Below, piece by piece: positions 1 to 43,166 of a stretch of 64,000 bases of DNA. The stretch comes from Escherichia phage FL38. Each line of letters starts with the position of its first letter. The first letter of the stretch is position 1. A program made the translations under genes and the position numbers. Location: sequence record PP400784, one strand, 5' to 3'. The notes under the pieces are model-generated. The model worked only from the letters and a program-made list of their open reading frames with translations. It was not told the origin of the DNA and did not search any database.

Positions 1-561
1 CTGGTGTATGCTGTTAAGGTTCCAGAAAACAGATTGAATTATGAAATGGACCGTAACCACAATGCGCCAAACATTCGAATTACCGGACGTGATTTTGATC
101 CGCTTGTGTTGAGCTTTAGAATGGACTCTAGCGCATCAAACTATAGAGCAATGCAGGATTGGGTTAACTCAGTAGAAGACCCCGTTACAGGGCTTCGTGC
201 GCTTCCTGTTGACGTTGAAGCAGATATTCAGGTCAACTTACATAACCGAATGGGAGTCCCTCACACGATCATGATGTTTAATGGTTGTGTTCCTGTTGGT
301 GTGAGTGCACCGGAATTAACCTATGAAAACAACAACGAAATTACAACATTCGATGTTACTTTTGCGTATAGGACTATGCAAACTGGTGCTGTAGGAGAGC
401 AAGCCGCGCGAGAATGGATTGAGGATAAGGCAATAAACGCAATAACAAACACTTTCGGCAATAATTTACTTGATAGTGGGTTATCTGCTGCTGGTAATGC
501 TTTATCTCGTCTAAATGGCGTTGGTGGGCGTGTGGTGAATACTGTCACTAACTGGTTCTGA
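1..561 (+). CDS. 54: Late structural protein, probably baseplate/tail-tube gp54-like, C-terminal part; gene starts upstream of window
   Basis: Open frame runs from window edge to stop at 559-561; position upstream of alt matches T4 order 48-54-alt. No direct motif recognised. Confidence 0.45.
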   Translation: MVYAVKVPENRLNYEMDRNHNAPNIRITGRDFDPLVLSFRMDSSASNYRAMQDWVNSVEDPVTGLRALPVDVEADIQVNLHNRMGVPHTIMMFNGCVPVGVSAPELTYENNNEITTFDVTFAYRTMQTGAVGEQAAREWIEDKAINAITNTFGNNLLDSGLSAAGNALSRLNGVGGRVVNTVTNWF

Positions 562-568
562 TAATCGA

Positions 569-599
569 AAGGCGGGGATAATCCCCGCCTTTTTATTTT
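569..599. terminator. Bidirectional rho-independent terminator between convergent genes
   Basis: GC hairpin GGCGGGG-ataat-CCCCGCC followed by T-run on plus strand; sits between gp54 stop and minus-strand lipoprotein stop. Confidence 0.7.
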
Positions 600-1078
600 G
601 CTAAATCATTGCAATATTTTAGTGCCTTAGTTTGAAATTCTGCGCTGTTAAGTTCTTCATAACGGTCATAATCACCGTTTAATGCTGCCTTTCTTGCTTC
701 TTGCTCTATCTGCATGTCAGACATGATAATACAGCGATCCCGCGCTTTCATCTTCTCAAGTTGTATAGACTCTTCTTTCTGCTTGCGCAATTCTTCTTGA
801 CGCTTCTTTTCTTCTTGTGCTTTCTCTTCCCGCGCTTCTTTGATTGCATCCTTGAACATCTGCGTTTGTGGTGCTAAGCCAACTTTAACGCGATCCACGT
901 CTCGACGTTCCATTTTAGAAATAAAGCATGATTCAATCTGATCATCACTTGCATATGCTGCTTTACATTCACGAAGCAAGAAAACCGGATCTGATTTAGC
1001 ATTCATCATAGCTTCCATGTTGGCACAACCAGTAAGCATGAATGCAGCCGCAAGACCAATCAGTTTAATCATTTTCAT
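593..1078 (-). CDS. Predicted lipoprotein with charged coiled-coil region
   Basis: N-terminal signal peptide with lipobox LTGC (MKMIKLIGLAAAFMLTGC); K/E-rich helical segment. Confidence 0.6.
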   Translation of the reverse strand: MKMIKLIGLAAAFMLTGCANMEAMMNAKSDPVFLLRECKAAYASDDQIESCFISKMERRDVDRVKVGLAPQTQMFKDAIKEAREEKAQEEKKRQEELRKQKEESIQLEKMKARDRCIIMSDMQIEQEARKAALNGDYDRYEELNSAEFQTKALKYCNDLAK

Positions 1079-1899
1079 TTAGTCACCTCACCGAAAATTG
1101 TAAATTGTCTACGATTCTCATCGCCGAAAGATTCTACTACGTCGTTTACCTTGACGCAAGTCCCGCGCGGTAAAATTACTTCACATTCGCAAGGATTCCA
1201 TGCAATGGACCCAACAACAAAACCTTTATGATCTTTTACGTCAATTACCCATGATACATTACAAGAATGTTGCATCTTTCCGGTCATTGATTCATATCGA
1301 TTCTCACAATAAAGGCTAGTGCTGTTTGATAGCCATCCTCCAAAGATGATCGGTGTCATGCTGGTAGATACAAAGTTTTTAAAGGTAAACTCCTTATCTT
1401 CAATGATACGCTCTATTGTCTGAATGTCAAGATGTTGACCGCGATAAAGAGTACCGTTTAACTTTTCGGTTTTATCCATGACACAATCCATCAAATCAAC
1501 AATCTCTGATATCTCATCGGTCATGTCTTCTTCCCCTAAGAGAGCACCATTTACCCATTCGTATTGCTCAGACACATAATCACAGATTGCATTATATTCT
1601 GCTGGTGTTATGTTGTTATGTTTGTAATGTTTGAATACATTATCTCCAAAGTCTTCGGAGTGTACTTCATACATCACATTAATGATTTTCTTGACAAATC
1701 CATAATCTTGTGTCTCACGCTCAAGGAAGCGGATAACCTTCACATAATCATCAAAGTTAATCTGATCGCTGATCATCTCAGTGATCATGTAGCCATTAAT
1801 CCCCTCAATGTCATATGTTTCGATGTAATTATCCATACGTTCCATCATTGATTCGCGTGATTCTTCCGAAAGACGAAAATCCTGTAATTTCTTGAACAT
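1075..1899 (-). CDS. Alt-like ADP-ribosyltransferase paralog
   Basis: R-S-E ART motifs (LYRGQ, FVSTSM, CECEVILPRG) closely parallel the C-terminal domain of the adjacent Alt ORF. Confidence 0.7.
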   Translation of the reverse strand: MFKKLQDFRLSEESRESMMERMDNYIETYDIEGINGYMITEMISDQINFDDYVKVIRFLERETQDYGFVKKIINVMYEVHSEDFGDNVFKHYKHNNITPAEYNAICDYVSEQYEWVNGALLGEEDMTDEISEIVDLMDCVMDKTEKLNGTLYRGQHLDIQTIERIIEDKEFTFKNFVSTSMTPIIFGGWLSNSTSLYCENRYESMTGKMQHSCNVSWVIDVKDHKGFVVGSIAWNPCECEVILPRGTCVKVNDVVESFGDENRRQFTIFGEVTK

Positions 1900-1924: not shown

Positions 1925-1951
1925 CGGGGCTAGTATAAAACTAGTCCCCGT
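1925..1951 (-). terminator. Hairpin/terminator downstream of alt
   Basis: Stem GGGGCTAGT/ACTAGTCCCC with U-rich tract on minus strand. Confidence 0.5.
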
Positions 1952-1977
1952 TTGAGTCAACCATTATTTCTTAAAAA

Positions 1978-4029
1978 TTACATTTTAAATTTATCTGGCA
2001 TTGCGTCTACAGATACCAGATCAGCGATAAGCTGACGTAGAGTTGCCTTATCTGCTTTCTTACGTTCGGTTTTAGCTTCGCTAATGAAGCTGGAGAAAGA
2101 CAGGTCAGAAGCAGGTTTAACAACACCTTCACGGATGAATGCATCACCGTCCGCGATCATCTCGCCAGATTCTTGCAATGCTGCCAGTTCATTTTTGTTC
2201 ATAATATGTGCCTCAATGTAATAAGTTTCTTGTGAATCCGTCGATGCCGTAGCACGAGTTACCGTATCAAAGGATAACACAACACCGCGAGGAAGTAAAA
2301 TCTCGCATTCTTTGTAAGCAAATGCTTTGTTACCTACTGGCAAGACAGGGATGTTTTCCGCGCCAGCAATGGAGAAAGCAACATTAGCGCCACCTTCACC
2401 GCGAGAGCCAGCCATAGAATCAACACCAGCAACGGCACTAGCCACGTTTGCATTCCAGCCGCCAAAAATGTTAGGTGCAAGGGAAGTGCTCACATAGTTT
2501 TTAAAGTAAAACGCTTTTTGCTTACGTGCAGTTTCCCACATTTGCGACCGGAAGTCCATACCACGATACAGAATAGTACCCGGATCAAGTTTAACGCCAT
2601 AGTTGGAGAAGGCATTATCCAGTGCATCGCACATCTTGACCAATTCTTCTGGATCTGAGATGCCTTCAAACTCTTCCAGCTTACGGTCGGTTAGGAAGTT
2701 GTTCATATTGATGTATGCTGCATCGGCATATTCGCTCAACACAAAACCTTCCGCGCCTGGCAGATCAAGATCAATATCTGCCATCATTTCACCCATGTTG
2801 CTAGCAATTGCTTCAAACATACCGGAAGCAACATTACGTAGGGCATCGGTTTTGATCTGGGTGATATGACTACGCAGCATTTCAGCTTTTACATCTGCTG
2901 GCATAGACTGGTCTACTCGATCCATTGCCAGGGCGGTGATCTTGTTTTCGAATACTTCCTCGCTCATGATTTCTTTTAAGCGTTTGATTGATGCTGCGAT
3001 AACTTCCGCAGACAACGGATCATATTGATCCTGAACTTTTACCAGTTCGCTTACTGCGTATTTTGCATCGGCTTCGCTTTCAAAAATAGTACGCATGAAA
3101 CCATAGCGAGTGATAATATCACTTGTCCATTCATTCAGAGAACGGGCGGTTGAACGTTCTAAGGCTTGACGATCAATCAGAGTATTAAACTGTTTCTTAG
3201 GTTCGGCTTCGGTGATATCTTCTTCCGGTTTAAGATTAATTTTTTCTGGATGATTCACATAGTCGCTGTTATAGGTCGCTTGAGTTTTCAGCATTTCTTC
3301 TTTAGTCAAACGAGATTTAGCCGCTACGCGTTGTTCTGCTTCCGCGTTTCGTTCTTCTTCTGACACAAGACTGGCCGCATATGCCTCATCTTTAGTCAGA
3401 GATTCACCAGTAGCCTTAGATACCCAGCGATCACCTAAATCACTTTCTACTTTAGTGAACAAGGATTCATCAAGTTTAATCCCTTTAATCTTATCAATCG
3501 CCATCCCGCGACGCTTGACAACAACTAAAGCGATCTTTTTGCTGGTCATTACTTCCTGCTGGAATACTTCAAACTTCGGTGTACGACGCACCAAACGCTC
3601 TATAACGCGCTTAACCAGTTCGGTCTTACCTTTCATGCGGGATACGTTAAAACGGAACATAACAGCGTCTAATTGCGCTTTACGGGCTGTTTCCATAACC
3701 ACATCAAAAGCACTTGACATAACTGCAATCGGGTTATCGCCTAGACCATTTTTAAGCTGTACAATACGACCGCTTTTGTTCATTTCGCACAGTACAACAT
3801 GTGCGGTCTTGTCACCCATACGAATGATTTTAGGTGTTTTGTTGGTGAAGTTACAAAGACGGACAATCACATCTTTATCGCGTGTCTGTACTGCAAAAAG
3901 CTGTTTAGGATTCTGCTTAGGCTTTAAGCACTGTACCGGAGCAATACTGCCAAAGTTTTCTTCCTCTTCCGTCAACAGCCATTTCTCGAAAGATTCAATC
4001 ATTAGATCGTCGATTTCTAAGTTAAACAT
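1978..4029 (-). CDS. alt: Alt, packaged ADP-ribosyltransferase acting on host RNA polymerase
   Basis: 683 aa (T4 Alt 682 aa); ART motifs YRGMDF / YVSTSL / ECEILLPRG; position between gp54 and DNA ligase region. Confidence 0.85.
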   Translation of the reverse strand: MFNLEIDDLMIESFEKWLLTEEEENFGSIAPVQCLKPKQNPKQLFAVQTRDKDVIVRLCNFTNKTPKIIRMGDKTAHVVLCEMNKSGRIVQLKNGLGDNPIAVMSSAFDVVMETARKAQLDAVMFRFNVSRMKGKTELVKRVIERLVRRTPKFEVFQQEVMTSKKIALVVVKRRGMAIDKIKGIKLDESLFTKVESDLGDRWVSKATGESLTKDEAYAASLVSEEERNAEAEQRVAAKSRLTKEEMLKTQATYNSDYVNHPEKINLKPEEDITEAEPKKQFNTLIDRQALERSTARSLNEWTSDIITRYGFMRTIFESEADAKYAVSELVKVQDQYDPLSAEVIAASIKRLKEIMSEEVFENKITALAMDRVDQSMPADVKAEMLRSHITQIKTDALRNVASGMFEAIASNMGEMMADIDLDLPGAEGFVLSEYADAAYINMNNFLTDRKLEEFEGISDPEELVKMCDALDNAFSNYGVKLDPGTILYRGMDFRSQMWETARKQKAFYFKNYVSTSLAPNIFGGWNANVASAVAGVDSMAGSRGEGGANVAFSIAGAENIPVLPVGNKAFAYKECEILLPRGVVLSFDTVTRATASTDSQETYYIEAHIMNKNELAALQESGEMIADGDAFIREGVVKPASDLSFSSFISEAKTERKKADKATLRQLIADLVSVDAMPDKFKM

Positions 4030-4633: not shown

Positions 4634-5149
4634 TTATTTTTTTAATTGCTCATCTTGCAATAGGGCAATCACATGCTGGCGATGTTCTTCCGATTGAGGA
4701 ACACCGAAAAAGTTTGTTTTGTAGAAATACTCTAATCGGTCTTCTCGTGTGCTCTCTTCCATCATGATCGCGGGTAGTCCGAGATTTCGGAAACGTCGCT
4801 TTTCTGCTGGCGTAAAATCACTGTAATACAACATAGAATCATCATTACCAGCAATGCTAAACTCATCTTTCATGAAGGAGAATATTGCGTTTAAACGCTG
4901 TTTACCGTCCACGATTTCGATCTCATAGCGAGAGCCATCATCAATCTTAGCCATTGCGATAGCACCAACAGGAAAATCATTAATCATGTTTTCGATAAAC
5001 ATACGTTTGTTTTCGGTGTCCCATACCAAAGGACGCTGATAATCTGGGTTCATGTTGATAAAGCCATCTTCTAACCACGCCTCATAAACAGAGATGACAA
5101 AGTTTTTAGTATTGGTATAGTAACGGCGTTTAGGCGTTAAACGGTTCAT
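4634..5149 (-). CDS. DUF262 / ParB-like nuclease-domain protein (171 aa)
   Basis: Motifs DYQRPLVWD and IVDGKQRLNAI typical of DUF262 (GmrSD N-terminal, ParB/Srx fold); start trimmed to ATG with SD AGGAGA abutting upstream stop. Confidence 0.55.
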   Translation of the reverse strand: MNRLTPKRRYYTNTKNFVISVYEAWLEDGFINMNPDYQRPLVWDTENKRMFIENMINDFPVGAIAMAKIDDGSRYEIEIVDGKQRLNAIFSFMKDEFSIAGNDDSMLYYSDFTPAEKRRFRNLGLPAIMMEESTREDRLEYFYKTNFFGVPQSEEHRQHVIALLQDEQLKK

Positions 5150-5150
5150 G

Positions 5151-5480
5151 TTATAGTCTCCTGAATGGATCATCACGTAAATCAATATCTTTTAAGAACT
5201 CATCCCATGAATGGCGGATATTGTTCTCAATTCTCCAGATAAGCGCAGGGATTGAACGTTCTCCCATCTGGAAGTAAGGATCATATGATCCATATGCCCA
5301 ATATGCTACGACAATTCCACAATCAGCGCAATAATATTCTATTTCACTTGCTGGCGACCAAAGTCCATCAATATGATCAGTGATCTTGCTTTCGATGTTA
5401 TGGCTATGGCAATCAGGGCAACGGATGCAATGACCTTGTTTATCGTAATTTGACGTTAGAGAATACTTAAACAATCTCAT
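5151..5480 (-). CDS. Zinc-ribbon protein (109 aa)
   Basis: Cys clusters C-IRC-PDC and YCADCG; TAATG stop/start overlap with upstream gene. Confidence 0.5.
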   Translation of the reverse strand: MRLFKYSLTSNYDKQGHCIRCPDCHSHNIESKITDHIDGLWSPASEIEYYCADCGIVVAYWAYGSYDPYFQMGERSIPALIWRIENNIRHSWDEFLKDIDLRDDPFRRL

Positions 5481-6196
5481 TATAGATCCTTATTGGCTTC
5501 AAATACTGCCTTTGCGAATCCTCGCGGCGTAAGTGACCTGATAGTCTTTGTTTTCGTTCCTTTCCCGCCTAGCTTAGAATGCTGTTTACTGTACCCTTTA
5601 TTAATCTGCAAAGGTTTCTTTTCTGGCATTATAAAGCCTTGTCCGGTCCATAAGCAAGTCTTTTTCGGGTACATATCACGGGCGGCAATATACTCAGGAA
5701 ACGTAGGATGTTTGTCATCTTCCGGCAAATAACCGCCATATTCCCACGGATGGAACATGTAATCAGGCTTACGCCACATACTAGAGATAACGCTTACAGG
5801 ATTCTCTATCATGTAGGGAACTCCTAGCCATTCACCCAAATAAGCGGTTATTTTAGCTGCCCGTACATCATGAACTTGAATCAATGGTCCTTGTTCTCGT
5901 TTCTTTCGTTCAAAGTGCGCAGCGCCACTAACAGCTAAATTGGTGCACGGTGGGAATGCAAAGATAATATCCGGTTTCCCCCATTCAAGGTCCATTGCTC
6001 TTTCCAGCCAGTTCAAATCAATCCAGGTGTTTACATAGGTAATGTTTGGATGTTCAAATCTGGTATTATACTTTTTGTATGTACCGTGGTCGGCGTCATC
6101 CGCATTAAAGCAGACTACATTATGACCTGCTTTAGCCCATTCTAGCCCCATTATCCCCGATCCGTCAAAGTTGCAGAATATTAATTTTTGTTTCAT
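5480..6196 (-). CDS. SAM-dependent methyltransferase-like protein with C5-cytosine MTase-type motifs (238 aa)
   Basis: FCNFDGSG (motif I-like), FAFPPCTNLAVSGA (PC catalytic motif IV-like), VPYMIENP (ENV motif VI-like); no obvious target-recognition domain. Confidence 0.4.
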   Translation of the reverse strand: MKQKLIFCNFDGSGIMGLEWAKAGHNVVCFNADDADHGTYKKYNTRFEHPNITYVNTWIDLNWLERAMDLEWGKPDIIFAFPPCTNLAVSGAAHFERKKREQGPLIQVHDVRAAKITAYLGEWLGVPYMIENPVSVISSMWRKPDYMFHPWEYGGYLPEDDKHPTFPEYIAARDMYPKKTCLWTGQGFIMPEKKPLQINKGYSKQHSKLGGKGTKTKTIRSLTPRGFAKAVFEANKDL

Positions 6197-15416: not shown

Positions 15417-15737
15417 TTATTTATAAATTTCGACGATCTGCGCTGGAGTCAGCCCGTCTACATTAATCAGACTATCAAGCCCAAAACTACGGAAACCTTC
15501 AACTGCAATTTCATATACTGGCAAAGATGTTTCTGATTCTTTACGCGGTTTTTCAACATTAGGAACTAACCACTTTTCGTATGTTTCGAAAGGCATCAGT
15601 GCCGGATCTCGCGTGGCGATCATCTCACGGACAGTACCATCTTTCTTAGTAAACTGCAAAGAGTGAGTACCGACCGAAAACATTTTCTTTAGTGCTTCAC
15701 GAAGTGCGATATTATCAACTTGTTCAGTCATTATCAA
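15417..15737 (-). CDS. Hypothetical protein (106 aa)
   Basis: ORF between gene 31 and cd (T4 31.x position). Confidence 0.5.
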   Translation of the reverse strand: MIMTEQVDNIALREALKKMFSVGTHSLQFTKKDGTVREMIATRDPALMPFETYEKWLVPNVEKPRKESETSLPVYEIAVEGFRSFGLDSLINVDGLTPAQIVEIYK

Positions 15738-16455: not shown

Positions 16456-17333
16456 TAAAAGTCTCCGTAGTTAACCTGAAAACATTCTACACCAATTGAG
16501 CGGTACATGTCAACCACTTGATCACGGTCATCTACCGCCAACACAACATGATAACGCGGTGCAATTTCAGAGAAGAAGATCTCTTTCTTCACTTCATGAT
16601 CAGGACGACGATCATTAGTTTCACGTTGAAAGTGATCACTAGGTTCAATACCCTGTTCACGCAGCCATTGCAGAGTATCTTCTTCGCAAACATCCTCACG
16701 CCCTGAGCATGTAATGATACGATAACCATTATCACGATACAGTTTAAGCATTTCGATCACTTGCGGACGCGGTTTATCTTCTTTGACCTTTGTCCAGTCA
16801 AACGGATGACGACCGCCCTTATCCGCTAATGTTCCATCAATATCAAAGATCACTGCCTTCGGCAGCATGGTATTCGGTTTGTATACTTCTTGACCCATAT
16901 ATTCCTGCATCAGATAAAATTGGTTGCGCAAATTAGAAAGTGGAATTGCTTTCTCTCCGCGATAGAAATTACGTTTCTTTAGTGTCTCAAATGATTCATT
17001 GAACACTTGTTCAGTATACACCGCGTTAAATTCTTTTGCAAGTTCTTTGTAGAATACACGATGTTTTTCTTTCAGGTTGGTATCGGAGATAATGATACTC
17101 AATCCGCGTGATAGAGTCTCACGAGCAATCATTCTCTGAATAGACTCTACCAGCTTTTCTTTTTCCTTAGTATACTTGTATTTCAAATGTGAGTCAACAC
17201 CAAACAACATAAGACGAAGATCATCACGATTCACATTACGATAATTACTAAACCGTTTACATGTTTCCATCGCCCATGTAGTTTTACCGGACCCAGAACA
17301 ACCAACGGTTAAAATCACTTCACATTTCGGCAT
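16455..17333 (-). CDS. pseT: Polynucleotide 5'-kinase/3'-phosphatase
   Basis: P-loop GCSGSGKTTWA and HAD phosphatase motif VIFDIDGTL; start trimmed to MPKCEVILTVG aligning with T4 Pnk N-terminus. Confidence 0.9.
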   Translation of the reverse strand: MPKCEVILTVGCSGSGKTTWAMETCKRFSNYRNVNRDDLRLMLFGVDSHLKYKYTKEKEKLVESIQRMIARETLSRGLSIIISDTNLKEKHRVFYKELAKEFNAVYTEQVFNESFETLKKRNFYRGEKAIPLSNLRNQFYLMQEYMGQEVYKPNTMLPKAVIFDIDGTLADKGGRHPFDWTKVKEDKPRPQVIEMLKLYRDNGYRIITCSGREDVCEEDTLQWLREQGIEPSDHFQRETNDRRPDHEVKKEIFFSEIAPRYHVVLAVDDRDQVVDMYRSIGVECFQVNYGDF

Positions 17334-17785
17334 TATTTCTCCTTCGGTTTGCACCGTTCCTCATTAAGTTCTTTTCGATAATAACACATGATCAACTTAC
17401 TTTCAAGTGTATATCTCTTAATATCCGCAAGCCAGACTCTGAATTTTTGGGAGTCCTCCCACGACATAGAAACTCTAGGTTTACCGTCTATTGTATCCAC
17501 TTTCAGGTCAATGTCAACTTTTTCTATTGGTGCTGGTAGTGGAGGATGTAATTTCGGTTCCTGTGAATAATGGTCCATTGTACACGAAGAAAGCGCAAAT
17601 ACAATAGGCAAAGCGAAGACATGGATTATGGAGGTCTGAAAATTCTTATGTGCTTTCTTAAACATCCAGTGTATCACGAAAATTGAAAACACCATCAGGA
17701 TAATAATGCTTGCACCTATCCACAGATAATCAACCAGATTAAAATTGCTTATCTGCTCTTGTGTAGGCAATATTTCTATGCTCAT
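17333..17785 (-). CDS. Predicted membrane protein (150 aa)
   Basis: Hydrophobic segments WIGASIIILMVFSIFVIHWMF and IIHVFALPIVFAL. Confidence 0.5.
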   Translation of the reverse strand: MSIEILPTQEQISNFNLVDYLWIGASIIILMVFSIFVIHWMFKKAHKNFQTSIIHVFALPIVFALSSCTMDHYSQEPKLHPPLPAPIEKVDIDLKVDTIDGKPRVSMSWEDSQKFRVWLADIKRYTLESKLIMCYYRKELNEERCKPKEK

Positions 17786-18108
17786 TTAGTAGCCTCCTTT
17801 AATTCTTCGGTAAACTCCTTAAATGAGTCATTAAGCTGTTTCTCTACCAACTTGGGTTTTTGTGCTACTACATAGCCTCGTGTAGCGTCTTTCATTGCTT
17901 TGTTTTGTTCTTCCGCAAACTTAGTTCTTATTCCATACATCTCCTTTTGTAGTGAGTCTACGACCTTCATCTTTTCATCGGTCTTTTTCTTATACTCTGT
18001 AAATTCCTGATTCAGTCGATCTACCTCCTTTTTATTTTCCCACCACATATTGCCACCTACCCCCAGCAACACAGATATGATAACAATGTATATCAGCTTT
18101 GACATATT
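17782..18108 (-). CDS. Predicted single-pass membrane protein with coiled coil (about 108 aa)
   Basis: TM segment LIYIVIISVLLGVGG; ORF-track start trimmed because the terminator hairpin lies in the extension. Confidence 0.5.
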   Translation of the reverse strand, partial: NMSKLIYIVIISVLLGVGGNMWWENKKEVDRLNQEFTEYKKKTDEKMKVVDSLQKEMYGIRTKFAEEQNKAMKDATRGYVVAQKPKLVEKQLNDSFKEFTEELKEATK

Positions 18109-18123
18109 ACCCCCAACGACAAA

Positions 18124-18145
18124 AGGCGGGGAACTAGCCCCGCTT
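18124..18145 (-). terminator. Rho-independent terminator after rnlA
   Basis: GCGGGG-aactag-CCCCGC hairpin with U-tract on minus strand. Confidence 0.65.
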
Positions 18146-18149
18146 ATTA

Positions 18150-19319
18150 TTACCAATCAATCTTATCAGCCGGAATAAGTTTCTTATAATTCCGTAGATA
18201 GTAAGTTTTCATTGAATCCAGAATACGGTCATAATCAAGACCATCAAATGCAATCATCAGACACATGAAAATATATGCTTGTGCATCACCATGTTTACGT
18301 GATTCGATAGTCGCATTGGATGCATATGTCTTTCTGTCTTCTCCTGCGTGTGCGTTATAAAATTCTGTTGCTGTCGTGAAGGCATTGCGAAGAATAGACC
18401 TGAATGCTTCCTCGAATAGCTCGATTCGTTCCAGTGCTTCCGGTTCGCCTTCATATGCAGCACGCAAATCATCGGTTTCGCTTTCTACGACATAGTAGAT
18501 CAGGTTATTAGGAAACATCGATGTGTTTTTAATGTTATGCACACCAATATACCATTCACTCTTCACTTTGAACATTTGACCGTCTTTAGTGCGTGCAACA
18601 ATTCCTTCGATACCTTCTGCGGTCCGAACTTCATCAAGAATATTGCTAAAACGCGCTGAATCAACCTGTAACGCATTTACCAGATGAGGACGTAGGATTG
18701 CGTCAGCAAATAGCATTTGATGCGGTACGTACTCTCCTGTGACGTTATGGCGTACATTCAGAAGTGTTAGCGACGGTTCAGAATATTCTACAACAATTCG
18801 GTTGCTGGGCGCTGTATATTCAAAGTTGAAAGTATAATCAGACCCAATATCAGCAATCTTAGCGCGTAGATCCGCATACTTCTCTGAATACAGAAGACCG
18901 TTTGCTCTCTCTGCCTGGCTTGAGTACAAGGCCGCTTTAGACTTCAACTGAACATAGCCGTTATCAATGTATGTGCTTACTAGACTACCGTCCATTTTGT
19001 CCATGACCATTTCCACATCTTCCGGCTTAAAGCGAGCGCGATCATTCTCACCCAAATTAAAAAACTTCTCCATAGGACGAGATGCGATGCGGACCGGACG
19101 ACCTTTATCGTCAATTTCAAACATGATCCCGCGACACTCTAACGCATCTGGTTTATTCCACATTTCCGGTTTGCTCAAGTACAGATAGCTAAAAATGCGC
19201 ATACGGGTTTGCATCGCCGTAATTTCATCTTTGTAATAGAACGTATCAGATCCGTCACATAGTGCCATCAGATTTTTGAACAATGCTAAAACTTTTTTGT
19301 TGTTTTCTTTTGTTAACAT
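18150..19319 (-). CDS. rnlA: RNA ligase 1
   Basis: RIFSYLYLS, PDALECRGIMFE, PVRIASRPMEKFFNL, ligase motif I KMDGSLV parallel T4 Rnl1; true start may be the ATG at about 19268, which removes the overlap with denA. Confidence 0.9.
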   Translation of the reverse strand: MLTKENNKKVLALFKNLMALCDGSDTFYYKDEITAMQTRMRIFSYLYLSKPEMWNKPDALECRGIMFEIDDKGRPVRIASRPMEKFFNLGENDRARFKPEDVEMVMDKMDGSLVSTYIDNGYVQLKSKAALYSSQAERANGLLYSEKYADLRAKIADIGSDYTFNFEYTAPSNRIVVEYSEPSLTLLNVRHNVTGEYVPHQMLFADAILRPHLVNALQVDSARFSNILDEVRTAEGIEGIVARTKDGQMFKVKSEWYIGVHNIKNTSMFPNNLIYYVVESETDDLRAAYEGEPEALERIELFEEAFRSILRNAFTTATEFYNAHAGEDRKTYASNATIESRKHGDAQAYIFMCLMIAFDGLDYDRILDSMKTYYLRNYKKLIPADKIDW

Positions 19320-33696: not shown

Positions 33697-36600
33697 ATGG
33701 CAGATTTTTCTCAACATTTCAAGGCCACATTTGGCTTTGACGCTGGTAATGAAAAGGTCGTCAATGTAGCATTGGCTGATAAGAATGTCAACACCGATGC
33801 GATCAACGTTGAATTTTTCAATTACCATAATGGTATTACTCAGTATGACACAACTCGCGGTTATGATCAATACGGAACTACAATCTATCAAAACCGTCCG
33901 TATTATGCAAAAGAAGATATCACAAAACCAGCAGGTGATTTTGACCCGACTAAATGGCAAGCACTGCGCACGGACCCACGTTGGGATTATATTGCAGCAA
34001 CTTCCGGTGATACTCCTTTACAGTCTGGTGATTATATCGCAGCAGATGGTCAATTTGCAAACTTGACTTTCTCTATGCCAACTAAGCCAGCAGAGGGAGA
34101 CACTATAACAGTAAAAGATATCGGTGGCAAGTGTGGTGTTAACGAATTATCGTTCTTGAGTACAGGACATGAGTTTTACCATAACGGTAATGTGTATAAC
34201 CGAAAATGGTATTGCACTACCCCGTATGCAATGAACTATTTCATCTTTGTTCGTAATCGTTGGCATGTTTATCAGACAGGAACAGAGCCACGCGGTGTGT
34301 ACGCACAGCCAGCGATTGATGCTATTCAAATGCAGAATGGTGATCAGGTATTTCGTCGTAGTTCGTTGGGTAATATTACCTTAGTGCTTCCTAAGTTTGC
34401 CAACAATGGCGACATGATCCAGACTACAGACCTTGACGGATTAACCGCAACCAACCACGTTACGGTTAAAGTTCATGAGCACGCAGAAGAACAATCAATT
34501 GGCACGTCCGGTCTAAAAGAGATTATCGGTAAGCGTAGCGGTCATGGTGTATTCATCTTTGACAAGACGGAAAACTTATGGCGTTTGTGGGATGGTGATC
34601 AGTCTGTTCGTCTTAAACCGATCATCGATGACACTCGCTTGCAACCTAATAGCTATGTTGCTGTATTTGGTGATCGTGATGTTACTCTGACGCTGCCGAC
34701 CAATATCGAGCCGGGTGATCGTATTCAAGTTTCTATGCAGTATATGAACGGAAACCAGAATTGCCGTATTATCACCGCCACAGAGGATACAAAAATCCTT
34801 ATGCAGAAAAACATGGTTCAGTTTCCTAAGCGTAGCGAGTACCCATTCAATGGGACCGATACATGGACGGGAGTATCTGAATTGTCTTTCAACGCTGCAA
34901 ATGATTATGTACCTTATCTGGAGTTCTCTTATTCAGAAGGTGATGATGGTAAGAAATACTGGTTGGTGGCACATCCTCACCCGATTGTAGAACGAGTAGA
35001 TCCGACTCGTAAAGATCGTGTTGGTGTAATTGCACTGGCTACCCAAACTGAAACGAATAAAAACCATGAAGAGAATCCTAGCGACGAAGTTGCAGTAACA
35101 CCAAAAATGCTGGCTAATAAAACCGCCAACGAAACTCGACGCGGTATTGCTCGCATTGCGACTCAAGCGGAAACGCATCAAGATACTGGTTCCAACTTCC
35201 TGGATGATGTTATCGTTACGCCTAAAAAGTTAAATGACTGTGTTGCTACCGAAGCCCGTCGTGGTGTGATGGAAATTGCAACCCAGCACGAAACCAATGA
35301 AGGTTTAGACGATACCCGCGCTATTACTCCTAAGAAATTAGAAGAACGTCGCGCTTCCGAAGATCTCGCTGGTATTGCTGAAATTGTTCAGGCTGGCGGC
35401 AGTGCTGCCGCTCGACGTGGCGAAGCTGGTACAGGGATCTATAACATCAATGACCATGCTAAAATTGTTACGCCAAAAAACATCAACGAAGTCAAGGCGA
35501 CCGAAACTTCCCGTGGTGTTGGCTATCTGGCAACTGACGCGGAAGTGCAAGGGGCTACAGAATCAACCCCGCAAGATGCTTTACTCATCACGACTCGCAC
35601 GCTAACGAAACGTACTGCTACCGAATCGCGCACTGGTATCGCTGAAATTGCAACTCAGGAAGAAACAAACTTAGGTCAAAGTGATAACCATATCATCACG
35701 CCTAAAAAGTTGCATACTCGCCGCGCAACGGAAACTTTACACGGTTTAGCAGAAATTGCAACTCAGCCGGAGTTTGACGCAGGTCGTGACGATTCTCGCA
35801 TTTCTACCCCATTGAAGATTAAAACCTTCTTTGAGAATGCACAGCGTTTGAAAGTAGATCCGACTCAGGGGCTTAACCTTACTGGTGATTTGTGGCAAGG
35901 TATCATGATCAGCGGTCTGGATGCAACCGAAGACACAAAAGGTGTCGCTAAAGTTGCTACTACTCAGCTTACTGACGCTGGTCAAGATGATACTACAATC
36001 ATCACGCCTAAAAAGCTGCAAGGCAAAAAGGCCACCGAAGGTAAAGAAGGCATTATCCGAGTTGGTACTCAAGCCGAAACCGTGGCTGGTATTATGGACA
36101 ATGTAGCAATTTCTCCGAAGAACTTCAAATATGTTGTTCAGACAGAGGATACATGGAAAGCAACCGAAGCGCGTCGTGGCTTCTTGAAAGTTGCTACTCA
36201 GGAAAACTGTTTTGTTGGTGATAATCTGCAAGGTTCTACTCAAGAACTAGGAAACTACCAGCATGACGGAATTGCTGTTACTCCGAAAGGATTAAACTAC
36301 GCACTTGCTAATTTCTTACCTAAGATGGCAACCGCTCAGAATAGTTTGAAATTGGGTAACGTAGAGGCCGCTAAATGGGCGCGTAGAGACATTGACCAGA
36401 CCATAGAGAGCAATTACACGTTTAATAAAAAAGTTAACGTGAAGGGCGATTTAGAGTGCTTAAAATCAGGTTCCTTTGAAACTCTGTCTGTGACTAAGAA
36501 CTCGACCGATGTTCCGAGTAATGGTCATCTGGTGTTGGGTGAGCGTGGAGTTGACGGTCACACCGGAATTACTCTGCATGGCACAACCGCATCGGAAGGC

Positions 36601-40376: not shown

Positions 40377-43166
40377 ATGGCAGATTTAAGCAGAATCCAA
40401 TTTAAACGCACTAGCACTAAAGGTCGTAAACCTGATGCTAGTACGATGAATCCGGGGGAATTGGCAATCAACCTTGCGGATCAATATCTTCTTACTAAAA
40501 ATGATTCCGGTGCTATTATCAATTTAAGTTGTCCTCCTGTTTATGACCGCGATGTTACAATGGCGGGTAAGGTTAAAGGTAATAATTATATCTTAAGTAA
40601 AACCGCTAACTATCTGGAAGATCAGACCGCACGAGATCTTAATTACTTTGGTGCTTTCCGAACTAATGGACAAGATGGTCTTTTAGATCTAACTCTTAAT
40701 GTTCCTCATTCTGCTGGCATTAATCATGGTCGAGGATTTACTTTCCGTTATGCGACTGGCGGATCTCGTGTTGAAACCTATGGGTATAATGCACAGGGAC
40801 AAAAAGCATTTAGCTATAAAATGTATCACGAAGGTGATAAACCAACTCCAGGAGAATTGAACGTCTATAGCAAACAAGAAATTGACCGGATGTTTGTTAA
40901 GAACGTTAAAATGGTTGTTCCTTCTGGTGGTACAAACCGTGGTTATTTTAAAATTGCATCCGCAATGATCCCGCAGAGTGGTCGGATGGCGTTTCTGCGA
41001 ATCTATGGTGGTAATGGATATAATGTAAACTCATATGACCAAGTTGATTTTCTTGAAATTGTTATTCGTAGTGGTAATAATAACCCTAAAGGCGTTAGTA
41101 TTGCTGCATATCGTCGAAATTCTTTGAACGTCCATGAAGTATTTGCAATTAATACTTCCGGTGATAGCTATGACATTTATGTTAACTATGGTCGTTACAC
41201 TGATAACGTTATTGTAGAGTTTGGAAAAACTGTTGACGTCGCATTGACTGTTCATGATGTTCCTGAATTTTCGGCGACTAAACCAGAAACCGGAACTAAA
41301 TTTGATGCTCGTGTTATTACGATGTTCAACACCGAAAACAAAGCCGGAACATTGATGTTTGATAATAACAATCAGTTAACCTATGATATTGTTAGCCTTA
41401 GCAATGGTCCTGATGATGTTAGAAATTATCTGCGTAAATTCCGAAGTAAAGCGGGTGAAATGATTTGGCATGAAACCGTTCAGGGTGCTGTATATCGTCT
41501 TGCTACTGGAACTACTGATTCTACGGAAGTTCTTAGAGTTGATTCTAACAGTGCTCTCCCGGGTAGCTATAAAGGATATGTAATTACTGGTAAAATGGAA
41601 TTGCACGGTAGCGGTAGTGCGATGAATTTACACCGCCAGACTGGTCAAGCTGCATATATGGCGTGGTGGGATCGTCGTGATGGTAAAAACCAACGTAGTG
41701 GTTATATCGGCCATGCGGATGGTACTACTGATGGTTTTGTGTGGCGTAATGATGTTGGTGCGAACTCATTTGATTTGGAAAGTAGTGGACAAGTAAATTT
41801 GACTACAGGAAAAACAAAAATTGTATATACCAACGGACAATATTATTCCGCTAACTCTGATGCATTCCGTATGATTTACGGCAATTATGGCGCATTCTGG
41901 CGTAATGACGGCACTAAAGTTTATCTTCTTTCTACTGCCGAAAATGATCGTTTTGGTGGATGGAACGGCAACCGACCATTCATTTACGATTTGACTTCCG
42001 GTAACGTTCAATTAGGCGGTGACGGTAACGAAGCTGCATTAACGTTAGAACGTGCAAGCAAAGCCGCTCGTTTTACGGGTGATGTTTATGTAGAAAAAGG
42101 TTTCCTTCATTTCTCTAGTGGACGATTAGGATCTCGTGATTTCTTTAAAATCAACCATTGGGGTGATAGCAATAACGGTCGTGATAACATTTTGCAGTTT
42201 GAAGACAATAGCGGTGCACACTTCACAACTGAACGTAAAATGGCAACCGGTGAAATTACTGCGCGATTTAAAGGATTTGTGCGTGTAGAATCTGGCGAAA
42301 TTACATTCCATGCTAACCGTGGTTCTTCTTCGCAATTTAGTCTCAATACATGGGGTAATGAATCACGAAAACAAGTTTTTGAATGTAAGGATGCAACAAG
42401 TTATCATTGGTATACCGAACGTACTGCGGGTGGAACTGGTCCGGTTAAGTTCTCTGTTGCAGGTTCTTTCTATAGCGGAAGCGATGCTAACGTAGGCGGT
42501 AGTCTGAATTTTGGTAATGCTATTCAACGCGGCGCTAGCGTCATTACTATAGATTCTGGTTCTGCGGGTGCTGGTTCTTTTGCATCTCAACATGATGATA
42601 ACGTCAAAGCACCTATTTTCCAACGTTTAGACCGTGGTGATGCGTCTACATATGTTCCTTTGATCAAGCAACGTTATGTTCAAGGTGCAGTAACATTCTC
42701 GTTGGGTATGCTTCTTAATGAAGGTTCATGGCGAGTTCATGTTAAAGGTTCTGGTGTTGAATCTAATACTACCTTCTATAAAAACGGCGATTTCCAAGCT
42801 GGACGCAATGGTAACTTTAACGACGTTTACATTCGCTCTGATGCTCGCCTTAAAATCAACAAGGAAGAGTATAAGGAGAATGCCACTGATAAAGTTAATC
42901 GCTTGACGGTATACACCTATGACAAGGTTAAATCTTTAACCGACCGTACTGTCATTGCTCATGAAGTTGGTATTATTGCTCAGGATCTTGAAAAAGAATT
43001 ACCGGAAGCAGTAACAACTTCTAACATCGGCGATCCCGATAAGCCAGAAGAGATCTTAACAATTTCTAACTCTGCTGTCAACGCTCTTTTAATTAAGGCG
43101 TTTCAGGAAATGAGCGAAGAATTGAATGCCGTTAAAGCTGAACTAGCGGAACTTAAAAAGAATTAA
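40377..43166 (+). CDS. 37: Long tail fibre distal subunit gp37 with C-terminal intramolecular chaperone-like domain
   Basis: N-terminus MADLSRIQFKRTSTKGRKPDAS, AGAGSFASQ, YVPLIKQRYVQGA parallel T4 gp37; C-terminus SDARLKINKEEY ... AHEVGIIAQDLEKELPEAV resembles S74-type autocleaving chaperone. Confidence 0.88.
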   Translation: MADLSRIQFKRTSTKGRKPDASTMNPGELAINLADQYLLTKNDSGAIINLSCPPVYDRDVTMAGKVKGNNYILSKTANYLEDQTARDLNYFGAFRTNGQDGLLDLTLNVPHSAGINHGRGFTFRYATGGSRVETYGYNAQGQKAFSYKMYHEGDKPTPGELNVYSKQEIDRMFVKNVKMVVPSGGTNRGYFKIASAMIPQSGRMAFLRIYGGNGYNVNSYDQVDFLEIVIRSGNNNPKGVSIAAYRRNSLNVHEVFAINTSGDSYDIYVNYGRYTDNVIVEFGKTVDVALTVHDVPEFSATKPETGTKFDARVITMFNTENKAGTLMFDNNNQLTYDIVSLSNGPDDVRNYLRKFRSKAGEMIWHETVQGAVYRLATGTTDSTEVLRVDSNSALPGSYKGYVITGKMELHGSGSAMNLHRQTGQAAYMAWWDRRDGKNQRSGYIGHADGTTDGFVWRNDVGANSFDLESSGQVNLTTGKTKIVYTNGQYYSANSDAFRMIYGNYGAFWRNDGTKVYLLSTAENDRFGGWNGNRPFIYDLTSGNVQLGGDGNEAALTLERASKAARFTGDVYVEKGFLHFSSGRLGSRDFFKINHWGDSNNGRDNILQFEDNSGAHFTTERKMATGEITARFKGFVRVESGEITFHANRGSSSQFSLNTWGNESRKQVFECKDATSYHWYTERTAGGTGPVKFSVAGSFYSGSDANVGGSLNFGNAIQRGASVITIDSGSAGAGSFASQHDDNVKAPIFQRLDRGDASTYVPLIKQRYVQGAVTFSLGMLLNEGSWRVHVKGSGVESNTTFYKNGDFQAGRNGNFNDVYIRSDARLKINKEEYKENATDKVNRLTVYTYDKVKSLTDRTVIAHEVGIIAQDLEKELPEAVTTSNIGDPDKPEEILTISNSAVNALLIKAFQEMSEELNAVKAELAELKKN

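Follow-up and report, generated by a model that had tools for sequence, protein, structure and literature searches.

The window, a stretch of 64,000 nucleotides of Escherichia phage FL38 (record PP400784), codes for an uncharacterised phage lipoprotein that is predicted for the outer membrane and could be assigned to no named family. The gene as such is already known; it has been in GenBank since 2003 and is labelled as a putative lipoprotein. New, as judged from the sequences compared, are a conserved unit of apparent early type, which joins the lipoprotein gene to an ADP-ribosyltransferase (ART) gene, and three seemingly ancient alleles of the lipoprotein that are joined at the lipobox and appear independent of the tail-fibre tips and of gp5. 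Structural models add a predicted rod shape, the stalk of which varies in length. As a genus-wide lipoprotein of early type with discrete old alleles the protein is a candidate for a role in superinfection or envelope conflicts of Krischvirus.

593..1078, minus strand: lipoprotein gene, homologue of RB49 ORF182c; ATG start, 161 aa and stop codon, match to phrog_16112

In a PHROGs profile search the protein matched phrog_16112 end to end with an E of 9e-110. It corresponds to ORF182c of phage RB49 (RB49p182, NP_891753), which carries the label 'hypothetical protein' in the RB49 record, while homologues were already called lipoproteins by UniProt (phage KFS-EC) and in the record of W115. The first 4.1 kb of the window were 99% identical to the Escherichia phages kvi, FL37 and RB49 (Krischvirus, Straboviridae) and were matched by 58 records, all with an identity of at least 95%. 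The gene was located at the same locus in 58/58 Krischvirus records by tblastn. The protein of the window was 99.4% identical to that of RB49 and 100% to those of 14 other Krischvirus records. The dN/dS of the gene versus diverged relatives was 0.08-0.15 (Nei-Gojobori), indicating purifying selection; pervasive positive selection was ruled out by these values. Because of its presence in 58/58 records, the dN/dS and the match to phrog_16112 the ORF is more than a chance event and, on this comparative sequence evidence, is a real gene. The family is tiny, because an HMM search with the mature part retrieved just 9 clusters among 1.84 billion cluster representatives. Invariant in an alignment of 14 members, which spans a divergence down to 24% identity, were G17-C18 of the lipobox, C38, C51, D60, G67, C116, G135 and C156. 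Invariant cysteines are expected of a periplasmic protein oxidised by DsbA.

1025..1078, minus strand: signal peptide with lipobox by a PROSITE-type rule, codons 1-18 (MKMIKLIGLAAAFMLTGC)
1025..1027, minus strand: codon of Cys18, predicted to be lipid-modified from its position in the lipobox

The N-terminus of the 161-aa protein reads MKMIKLIGLAAAFMLTGCANME. It comprises an n-region with K2 and K5, a hydrophobic core LIGLAAAFM and L-T-G-C at residues 15-18, and the predicted cleavage is MKMIKLIGLAAAFMLTGC^ANME.... Lipoproteins were recognised by a coded PROSITE-type rule that asks for positive charge in the n-region, hydrophobicity in the h-region and the lipobox [LVI][ASTVI][GAS]C with the Cys at 15-35. 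All of these elements were present in the window protein and in 12/16 family sequences tested; the type-C signal peptides (see below) carry an Asn at -2 of the lipobox and were not recognised by the strict rule. The pattern x-x-G-C was kept in 16/16 family sequences tested, and each of the 16 has exactly four further Cys. Thus, the claim of the original prediction that the 161-aa ORF with its LTGC lipobox is a phage-encoded lipoprotein was borne out, the Gly-Cys being invariant in distant homologues as well, and a lipoprotein of the Lgt/LspA/Lnt type is a well supported prediction from sequence. The residue at +2 of the lipobox was Ala in 15/16 family sequences, Ser in 1/16 and Asp in none. 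By the Lol rule of E. coli, lipoproteins lacking Asp at +2 are sorted to the outer membrane. Because the 161-aa protein has Ala at +2 and no Lol avoidance signal, outer-membrane sorting is predicted, and the lipoprotein would reside in the inner leaflet of this membrane. The C-terminus (...TKALKYCNDLAK) is polar, and there are no hydrophobic segments beyond residue 18. The last residue was Lys in 12/14 family members with Whisky (...DILN) and P0048 (...KLN) as exceptions.

The structure of the type-A lipoprotein, i.e. the sequence type of the window, was modelled by AlphaFold2 with the family alignment. The model was confident and all-helical with a mean pLDDT of 87.5 and had helices at residues 31-41, 45-65, 72-133 (a single helix of ~62 residues), 137-143 and 146-159. 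The mature lipoprotein (143 aa, 16.8 kDa) consists of the following parts.

842..1024, minus strand: N-terminal helical subdomain of the mature protein, residues 19-79, with C38, C51, D60 and G67 invariant in the alignment; pLDDT >90 in helices 31-41 and 45-65
755..841, minus strand: charged central helix or stalk, residues 80-108, within helix 72-133
596..754, minus strand: helical subdomain at the C-terminus, residues 109-161; C116, G135 and C156 invariant; helices 137-143 and 146-159

The model of the type-B lipoprotein of phage Whisky (pLDDT 85.8) showed the same topology despite an identity of ~30%. The C-terminal subdomain (109-161) was the best conserved part of the family. Because of the layout of the helices in the model, C38-C51 and C116-C156 probably pair as intradomain disulfides. 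A charged coiled-coil region had been claimed. Residues 80-108 were indeed 66% charged and 17% hydrophobic and part of a helix, yet a heptad hydrophobic stripe was absent. We therefore describe the segment as an ER/K-like stalk, not as a demonstrated coiled coil, since it looks like a single helix of that type. The length of the lipoprotein ranged from 146 to 172 aa among close relatives. Type-A relatives showed five indels, four of which (-5, -7, -15 and +11 aa) mapped to the charged helix; the fifth was a 4-residue deletion in the C-terminal subdomain. The data fit a charged helix that serves as a spacer of variable length and separates the distal subdomain from the one near the membrane.

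The gene is located between gp54 and the alt genes as had been stated originally. The locus and its expression signals comprise:

4..561, plus strand: 3' end of gp54 (tail tube; Phage_T4_gp19 / phrog_45), convergent with the lipoprotein gene
567..593, no strand assigned: bidirectional intrinsic terminator between lipoprotein gene and gp54; 12-bp stem with 7 GC pairs, dG -20.5 kcal/mol, z -4.8
1075..1899, minus strand: small Alt-like ADP-ribosyltransferase (ART), 274 aa, upstream partner of the lipoprotein gene; PF03496 with E 4e-16, phrog_15144
1085..1089, minus strand: Shine-Dalgarno (SD) sequence GAGGT of the lipoprotein gene, formed by the terminal Glu-Val codons of the ART gene
1925..1950, minus strand: alt terminator hairpin that encloses the -10 hexamer of the promoter and is followed by a T run; dG -15.3 kcal/mol, z -3.2
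1932..1960, minus strand: sigma-70-type (T4 early-type) promoter with the sequence TTGACT-17-TATACT, upstream of the ART and lipoprotein genes; scan score 10/12
1978..4029, minus strand: Alt, an Alt-type ADP-ribosyltransferase of 683 aa by profile matches

The ATG of the lipoprotein gene shares bases with the TGA stop codon of the ART (ATGA at 1078..1075). GAGGT was also found in the final ART codons of the relatives L006, L007 and L008, and the ATGA overlap plus an SD within the ART was kept in metagenomic relatives, the ART of which is 38-63% identical. From the sequence, translation of the lipoprotein is predicted to be coupled to that of the small ART. The promoter at 1932..1960 has been annotated independently in the record of phage GEC-3S. 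Across seven lineages, in which the flanking genes are merely 40-63% identical, TTGAC of the -35 element was invariant and the -10 element was TATACT or TAGAAT. In L007, L008 and L011 both arms of the alt terminator carry base changes, yet the stem is maintained. The terminator at 567..593 is annotated on both strands in GEC-3S and in TB34. A scan of the window for the T4-type late motif TATAAATA yielded none within 14 kb of the lipoprotein gene and three in total at 15418, 33661 and 38774, the latter two just upstream of tail-fibre ORFs starting at 33697 and 38816, respectively. Because the sigma-70-type promoter is conserved and a late promoter is absent, early expression of the lipoprotein is predicted, and the promoter motifs suggest early synthesis of the ART-lipoprotein unit as a whole.

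The order Alt, small ART, lipoprotein and convergent gp54-gp48-gp29 was kept in every relative placed on a contig. The lipoprotein gene is the final gene of the minus-strand unit and converges on the late gp29-48-54 cluster. Its position beside structural genes had been considered notable. This is uninformative because the gene closes a minus-strand unit of early type and lies across a bidirectional terminator from the late genes. The T4 ORFs at the equivalent position are unrelated to the lipoprotein; alt.-3 and alt.-2 of T4 were dismissed as positional counterparts since their translations are not lipoproteins. The annotation of T4 assigns alt.-1 to a duplicated 5' piece of alt.

The lipoproteins of the Krischvirus records were of three types.

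Type A (window): 50 records, 95.7-100% identical to the window
Type B (Whisky, JK32): 2 records, ~29-31% identical to type A
Type C (011D4, AV108, E26, PHB13, G37-3, PTE-Eco09): 6 records, ~29-30% identical to type A

The identity between types B and C was ~47%. The DNA of the window compared with those of Whisky and 011D4 was 96-100% identical through the ART gene, 81-96% in the codons of the signal peptide and 41-60% in the mature part. For Whisky the signal-peptide DNA was 96% identical and the next 420 bases ~50%. Identity with 011D4 recovered at the terminator. The 3' end of gp54 had diverged along with the lipoprotein allele in Whisky, but not in 011D4. In phage Skers the end of a type-C signal peptide (…ALVAMLNGC) is fused to a type-A mature part, a chimera that places recombination joints at the lipobox. 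Versus metagenomic type-A relatives the dS of the mature part was 0.7-1.3 as compared to 0.16-0.33 in ART and alt. The high dS of the mature part at a low dN/dS implies that this segment is older than its flanks and was imported by recombination. Thus, as far as sequence comparison goes, the mature segment was acquired by recombination and not by fast evolution in place. Old exchanged cassettes are, by analogy, a pattern typical of loci of phage-phage or phage-host surface conflict. On the other hand, high dS with low dN/dS could reflect a hot spot of recombination where convergent transcription units meet and not selection for diversity. Of the four genes of the locus, the lipoprotein gene had diverged most in each of the more distant lineages. 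Identities in L007 were 47% for the lipoprotein, 63% for ART, 89% for gp54 and 95% for alt; lipoprotein, ART and gp54 were 28, 45 and 75% identical in L008 and 24, 38 and 73% in L006.

The identity of the spike lysozyme gp5 was at least 98.8% throughout the Krischviruses, those with types B and C included, and ART was 96-100% identical across the alleles. Because both are near-invariant, co-evolution with gp5 or ART does not explain the variation of the alleles. The C-terminal halves of gp37 were compared indirectly, each being scored against that of the window and not pair versus pair: type-A lipoproteins (at least 95.7% identical) were combined with halves 46-99% identical to that of the window, RB49 (type A) and 011D4 (type C) had 72.4% and 74.6%, and Cognac (type A) and Whisky (type B) had 52.3% and 51.7%, respectively. 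The gp38 of Whisky is near that of RB49, while the gp38 of Brandy is divergent (Efimov et al., PMC9569957). Brandy has a type-A lipoprotein. Co-variation of the allele with gp37 tips, gp5 or ART was rejected, as each comparison came out unlinked. Because the allele is linked neither to the gp37 tip nor to the gp38 differences, a match of the lipoprotein to the fibre receptor in the style of Llp or Cor is unlikely on sequence grounds. This weakens the earlier proposal that the lipoprotein masks the receptor.

Searches of Pfam, NCBIfam and PADLOC with the window protein and 14 family members returned only noise, the sole PADLOC match being PDC-M38A (E 0.005, 14 bits), which aligned with the charged helix. 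PHROGs contained the family itself, which is unannotated, and a match to Cor (phrog_1119, E 0.007), nothing else. Cor was discarded because residues 1-45 aligned with positions 1-33 of 78 of the profile, i.e. with the signal peptide alone. No PHROG family annotated as Llp matched the lipoprotein at E up to 0.1, a sequence-profile search of the PDB gave nothing significant, relatives by fold were not found, and neither sequence nor fold similarity to known exclusion proteins was found. In the literature on RB49 ORF182c, Krischvirus lipoproteins and T-even exclusion lipoproteins we found no study of the protein. An o-spanin was rejected, as the neighbours are ART and gp54, there is no i-spanin gene next to it and the spanin pair is located elsewhere at 17333..18156 (phrog_812 and a protein with a TMD; pseT.2/pseT.3 in the RB49 annotation). 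The RB49 pair is listed among the T4-type separated spanins (PMC6139136). A unimolecular spanin of the T1 gp11 type was rejected because the lipoprotein has no C-terminal TMD. The pattern C-x12-C...D...RD-x-C in the lipoprotein recalls LprI/DUF1311 (PF07007). This family was rejected: hhalign of the lipoprotein family versus E. coli YecT gave a probability of 0.6%, and none of 14 members matched PF07007 at E up to 10, while the YecT control itself matched at E 1e-17.

Spackle of T4 (Sp, gp61.3) had no sequence or fold match to the lipoprotein. The Sp query was 100% identical to T4 orf61.3 and matched 971 phage records. No Sp homologue was found in the window, and the sole match in ~142 kb of RB49, an in-frame stretch within gene 41, was spurious. 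Neither imm nor sp is annotated in RB49 from 1-85 kb and 110-164 kb. Thus, with no detectable Sp in Krischvirus, the niche of Spackle appears to be open.

We propose the following mechanism. Transcription would start early at the host-type promoter, and the lipoprotein would be translated from the second of two cistrons, coupled to the small ART. The product would be processed by Sec and SPase II. The mature lipoprotein may form an elongated all-helical rod with the disulfide-clamped N-terminal subdomain beside the lipid anchor. The charged spacer helix of variable length would hold the conserved, likewise disulfide-clamped C-terminal subdomain several nanometres into the periplasm. The lipoprotein would then act at the envelope or in the periplasm soon after infection of the cell, and it might exclude or protect against secondary phages after adsorption, in the periplasm and not via masking of the fibre receptor. 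By analogy, we tentatively favor an early, envelope-level factor for post-adsorption exclusion or protection, because the timing and the compartment are like those of T4 Sp and T5 Llp, Sp was not detected and the alleles are old cassettes. Superinfection exclusion, which was part of the original prediction, is thus plausible with regard to predicted early expression and the outer-membrane signal, but homology to Llp, Cor or other exclusion proteins did not turn up. A more detailed version appears doubtful, namely that the lipoprotein founds a new class of T-even exclusion factors, in which a disulfide-stabilised outer-membrane rod with a conserved head deep in the periplasm intercepts the incoming tail-tube tip or DNA delivery and replaces Spackle and Imm functionally in Krischviruses, with the three ancient alleles, swapped as cassettes at the lipobox, as specificities against different competitors.

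Masking of the Llp/Cor type would mean that the lipoprotein binds and inactivates the phage's own outer-membrane protein receptor, e.g. OmpA, from the periplasmic side, and thereby prevents superinfection and spares the progeny from debris. We regard this as rather unlikely. As with T5 Llp, an early, outer-membrane-sorted lipoprotein with disulfides is predicted, and a rod of this size could reach the periplasmic domain of OmpA. RB49-like phages use O-antigens or, on rough K-12, OmpA or an OmpA-dependent structure (PMC9569957). Many of them use O-antigen for their primary receptor and the LPS core via the short fibres, neither of which can be masked by a lipoprotein of the inner leaflet. Furthermore, neither the tail-fibre tip nor the gp38 differences between Whisky and Brandy are linked to the allele type, and the mature lipoprotein, apparently unrelated in sequence to Llp or Cor, exceeds either of them more than two-fold in size. 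A somewhat less probable reading is an Lpp-like strut to peptidoglycan or inner-membrane partners that stabilises or re-spaces the envelope or modulates lysis timing or vesiculation; it would come into play in a long latent period or lysis inhibition. The rod shape and the spacer helix of variable length would suit a strut, and so would the terminal Lys in 12/14 members, since the C-terminal Lys of Lpp is its point of linkage. RB49 has rI, t and a spanin pair, i.e. an elaborate control of lysis. Yet the terminal Lys is not invariant and an Lpp-like YRK motif is missing, the models fold back into disulfide-clamped subdomains and not into a trimeric coiled coil, the gene is distant from the lysis genes, and ancient divergent alleles are unexpected in a housekeeping role.

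The tight association with ART could also point to a module for host takeover or counter-defence, in which the lipoprotein handles an envelope consequence or a sensor of ART activity. Adjacency and coupling were strict in 58/58 isolates and in the metagenomic relatives examined, and in L007 the pair has diverged jointly (63% and 47%), whereas alt (95%) and gp54 (89%) have not. However, ART lacks a signal peptide and should stay in the cytoplasm, while the lipoprotein is predicted to be exported; the mature lipoprotein was swapped alone with ART still 96-100% identical within the genus, and adjacency may be plain shared ancestry in a narrow clade. We consider a module improbable. Least of all do we expect a dispensable ORFan that has no significant role and is kept by linkage. 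It would agree with the tiny family (9 clusters in 1.84 billion representatives) and the absence of a known domain, but hardly with a dN/dS of 0.08-0.15, retention in 58/58 genomes, a lipobox and four Cys that are invariant at 24% identity, and a conserved promoter, SD and terminator. The remaining probability belongs to functions beyond these readings.

The human gut and therapeutic cocktails commonly contain RB49-like phages. If the lipoprotein excluded other T-even phages this would bear on the design of phage cocktails, and an exclusion role, if true, would add a structurally new periplasmic exclusion mechanism. If the lipoprotein had no detectable effect it would be one of many conserved phage ORFans.

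Several known systems share features with the lipoprotein. The Braun lipoprotein Lpp is likewise a helical strut anchored in the outer membrane with Lys at the C-terminus, as in most members of the family. Lpp has 58 aa, forms a trimeric coiled coil, has no cysteines in the mature rod and ends in YRK; the phage lipoprotein differs by two predicted disulfide-clamped subdomains and a variable terminal Lys. The o-spanins such as lambda Rz1 and T4 PseT.2 are also phage outer-membrane lipoproteins with periplasmic cysteines. They are short, proline-rich and paired with an adjacent or embedded i-spanin gene. Cor of T1, phi80 and N15 is a small exclusion lipoprotein of phages, the mature part of which is unrelated and two-fold different in length. 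T4 Sp is made early and exported; it is a helical protein of the periplasm, contains cysteines and stops superinfection once adsorption has taken place. It is soluble, has 97 aa and inhibits the gp5 lysozyme, whereas phages with lipoprotein alleles that differ by 70% share an essentially invariant gp5. Ltp of the Streptococcus phage TP-J34 is helical and stops DNA injection, not adsorption. It has been described as a phage lipoprotein that takes part in superinfection exclusion (PMC3952083). T5 Llp is a small early outer-membrane lipoprotein with disulfides. Its target is FhuA, to which the receptor-binding protein of T5 itself attaches, while the Krischvirus lipoprotein alleles are unlinked to the tail-fibre tip; the Krischvirus lipoprotein also differs from the small Llp by its rod-like mature part of 143 aa in the model and by an apparently unrelated sequence. 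Llp acts in the periplasm and excludes further phage, and the same is proposed for the lipoprotein of Krischvirus.

The charged helix of the lipoprotein varies in length. In P0033, a metagenomic relative of the window's own type (type A), residues about 84-105 comprise an exact 11-residue tandem duplication, EEESRKENKHQ, while other relatives have lost 5, 7 or 15 residues from this part of the helix. The occurrence of duplication and deletions in one stretch suggests that these length changes arise by slippage in GAA/AAG-rich DNA.

The signal peptide also occurs in a variant form. In phages 011D4 and Skers and in the homologue P0042 it ends in …ALVAM(L/I)NGC, with an Asn at position -2 of the lipobox, a departure from the strict lipobox rule. 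Because Skers combines an end of this kind with a type-A mature part, the variant signal peptide is presumably functional. A further homologue, the type-B/C-like P0039 from a metagenome-assembled phage, bears the source name 'outer membrane protein assembly factor'. A relationship to Bam was supported neither by a Pfam scan of P0039 nor by fold searches with the model of the window protein.

When phage Whisky was compared with window positions 421..600, divergence was seen to run past the lipoprotein gene into the final ~180 bases of gp54, with 53-75% identity; in 011D4 the divergent tract ends at the terminator. The gp54 end of Whisky may have diverged by hitch-hiking, or the tail-tube initiator may be functionally linked to the lipoprotein.

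FL38 appears to possess three ADP-ribosyltransferase genes:
1978..4029, minus strand: Alt
1075..1899, minus strand: small ADP-ribosyltransferase of 274 aa
62032..62535, minus strand: putative ModB, an ORF of 167 aa
The last of these appears to be ModB, judged by its length and by a gene order that matches RB49p014. Within the parts of the RB49 annotation inspected, neither asiA nor motA was listed.

The alt terminator overlaps the promoter that serves the following unit:
1925..1960, minus strand: alt terminator hairpin interlocked with the next unit's promoter
The -10 element of this promoter, TATACT, falls in the loop and 3' arm of the hairpin. The interlock is kept, with both stem arms altered, in lineages whose coding flanks are just 40-63% identical. 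Upstream of alt lies an early-type unit, to which the ORF of 183 aa belongs:
4634..5185, minus strand: ORF of 183 aa with a DUF262/GmrSD_N-type motif
5480..6196: ORF of 238 aa, a DNA methyltransferase according to the RB49 annotation
The homologue of the 183-aa ORF at a relative's locus (L019) is marked PF03235.

A spanin pair lies next to pseT:
17333..18156, minus strand: spanin pair
The ORF at 17782..18156 has an N-terminal transmembrane domain; its partner, the o-spanin lipoprotein, has the lipobox LSSC and belongs to phrog_812. The longest-ORF call of 150 aa fuses the o-spanin with a stretch upstream, and the start is probably an internal Met near 17662.

gp37 is encoded on the plus strand:
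40377..43166, plus strand: gp37, C-terminal sequence …DARLKINKEEYKENATDKVNRLTVYTYDKV…
We take this end to be a C-terminus of the intramolecular-chaperone type. Identity in the C-terminal half of gp37 ranges from 46 to 99% among Krischviruses. The locus 3' of gp37 in the window consists of a 79-aa ORF followed by the holin, with no gene for a gp38 adhesin; in RB49 the gp38-like gene is a distant one, RB49p079 (45.4 kb).
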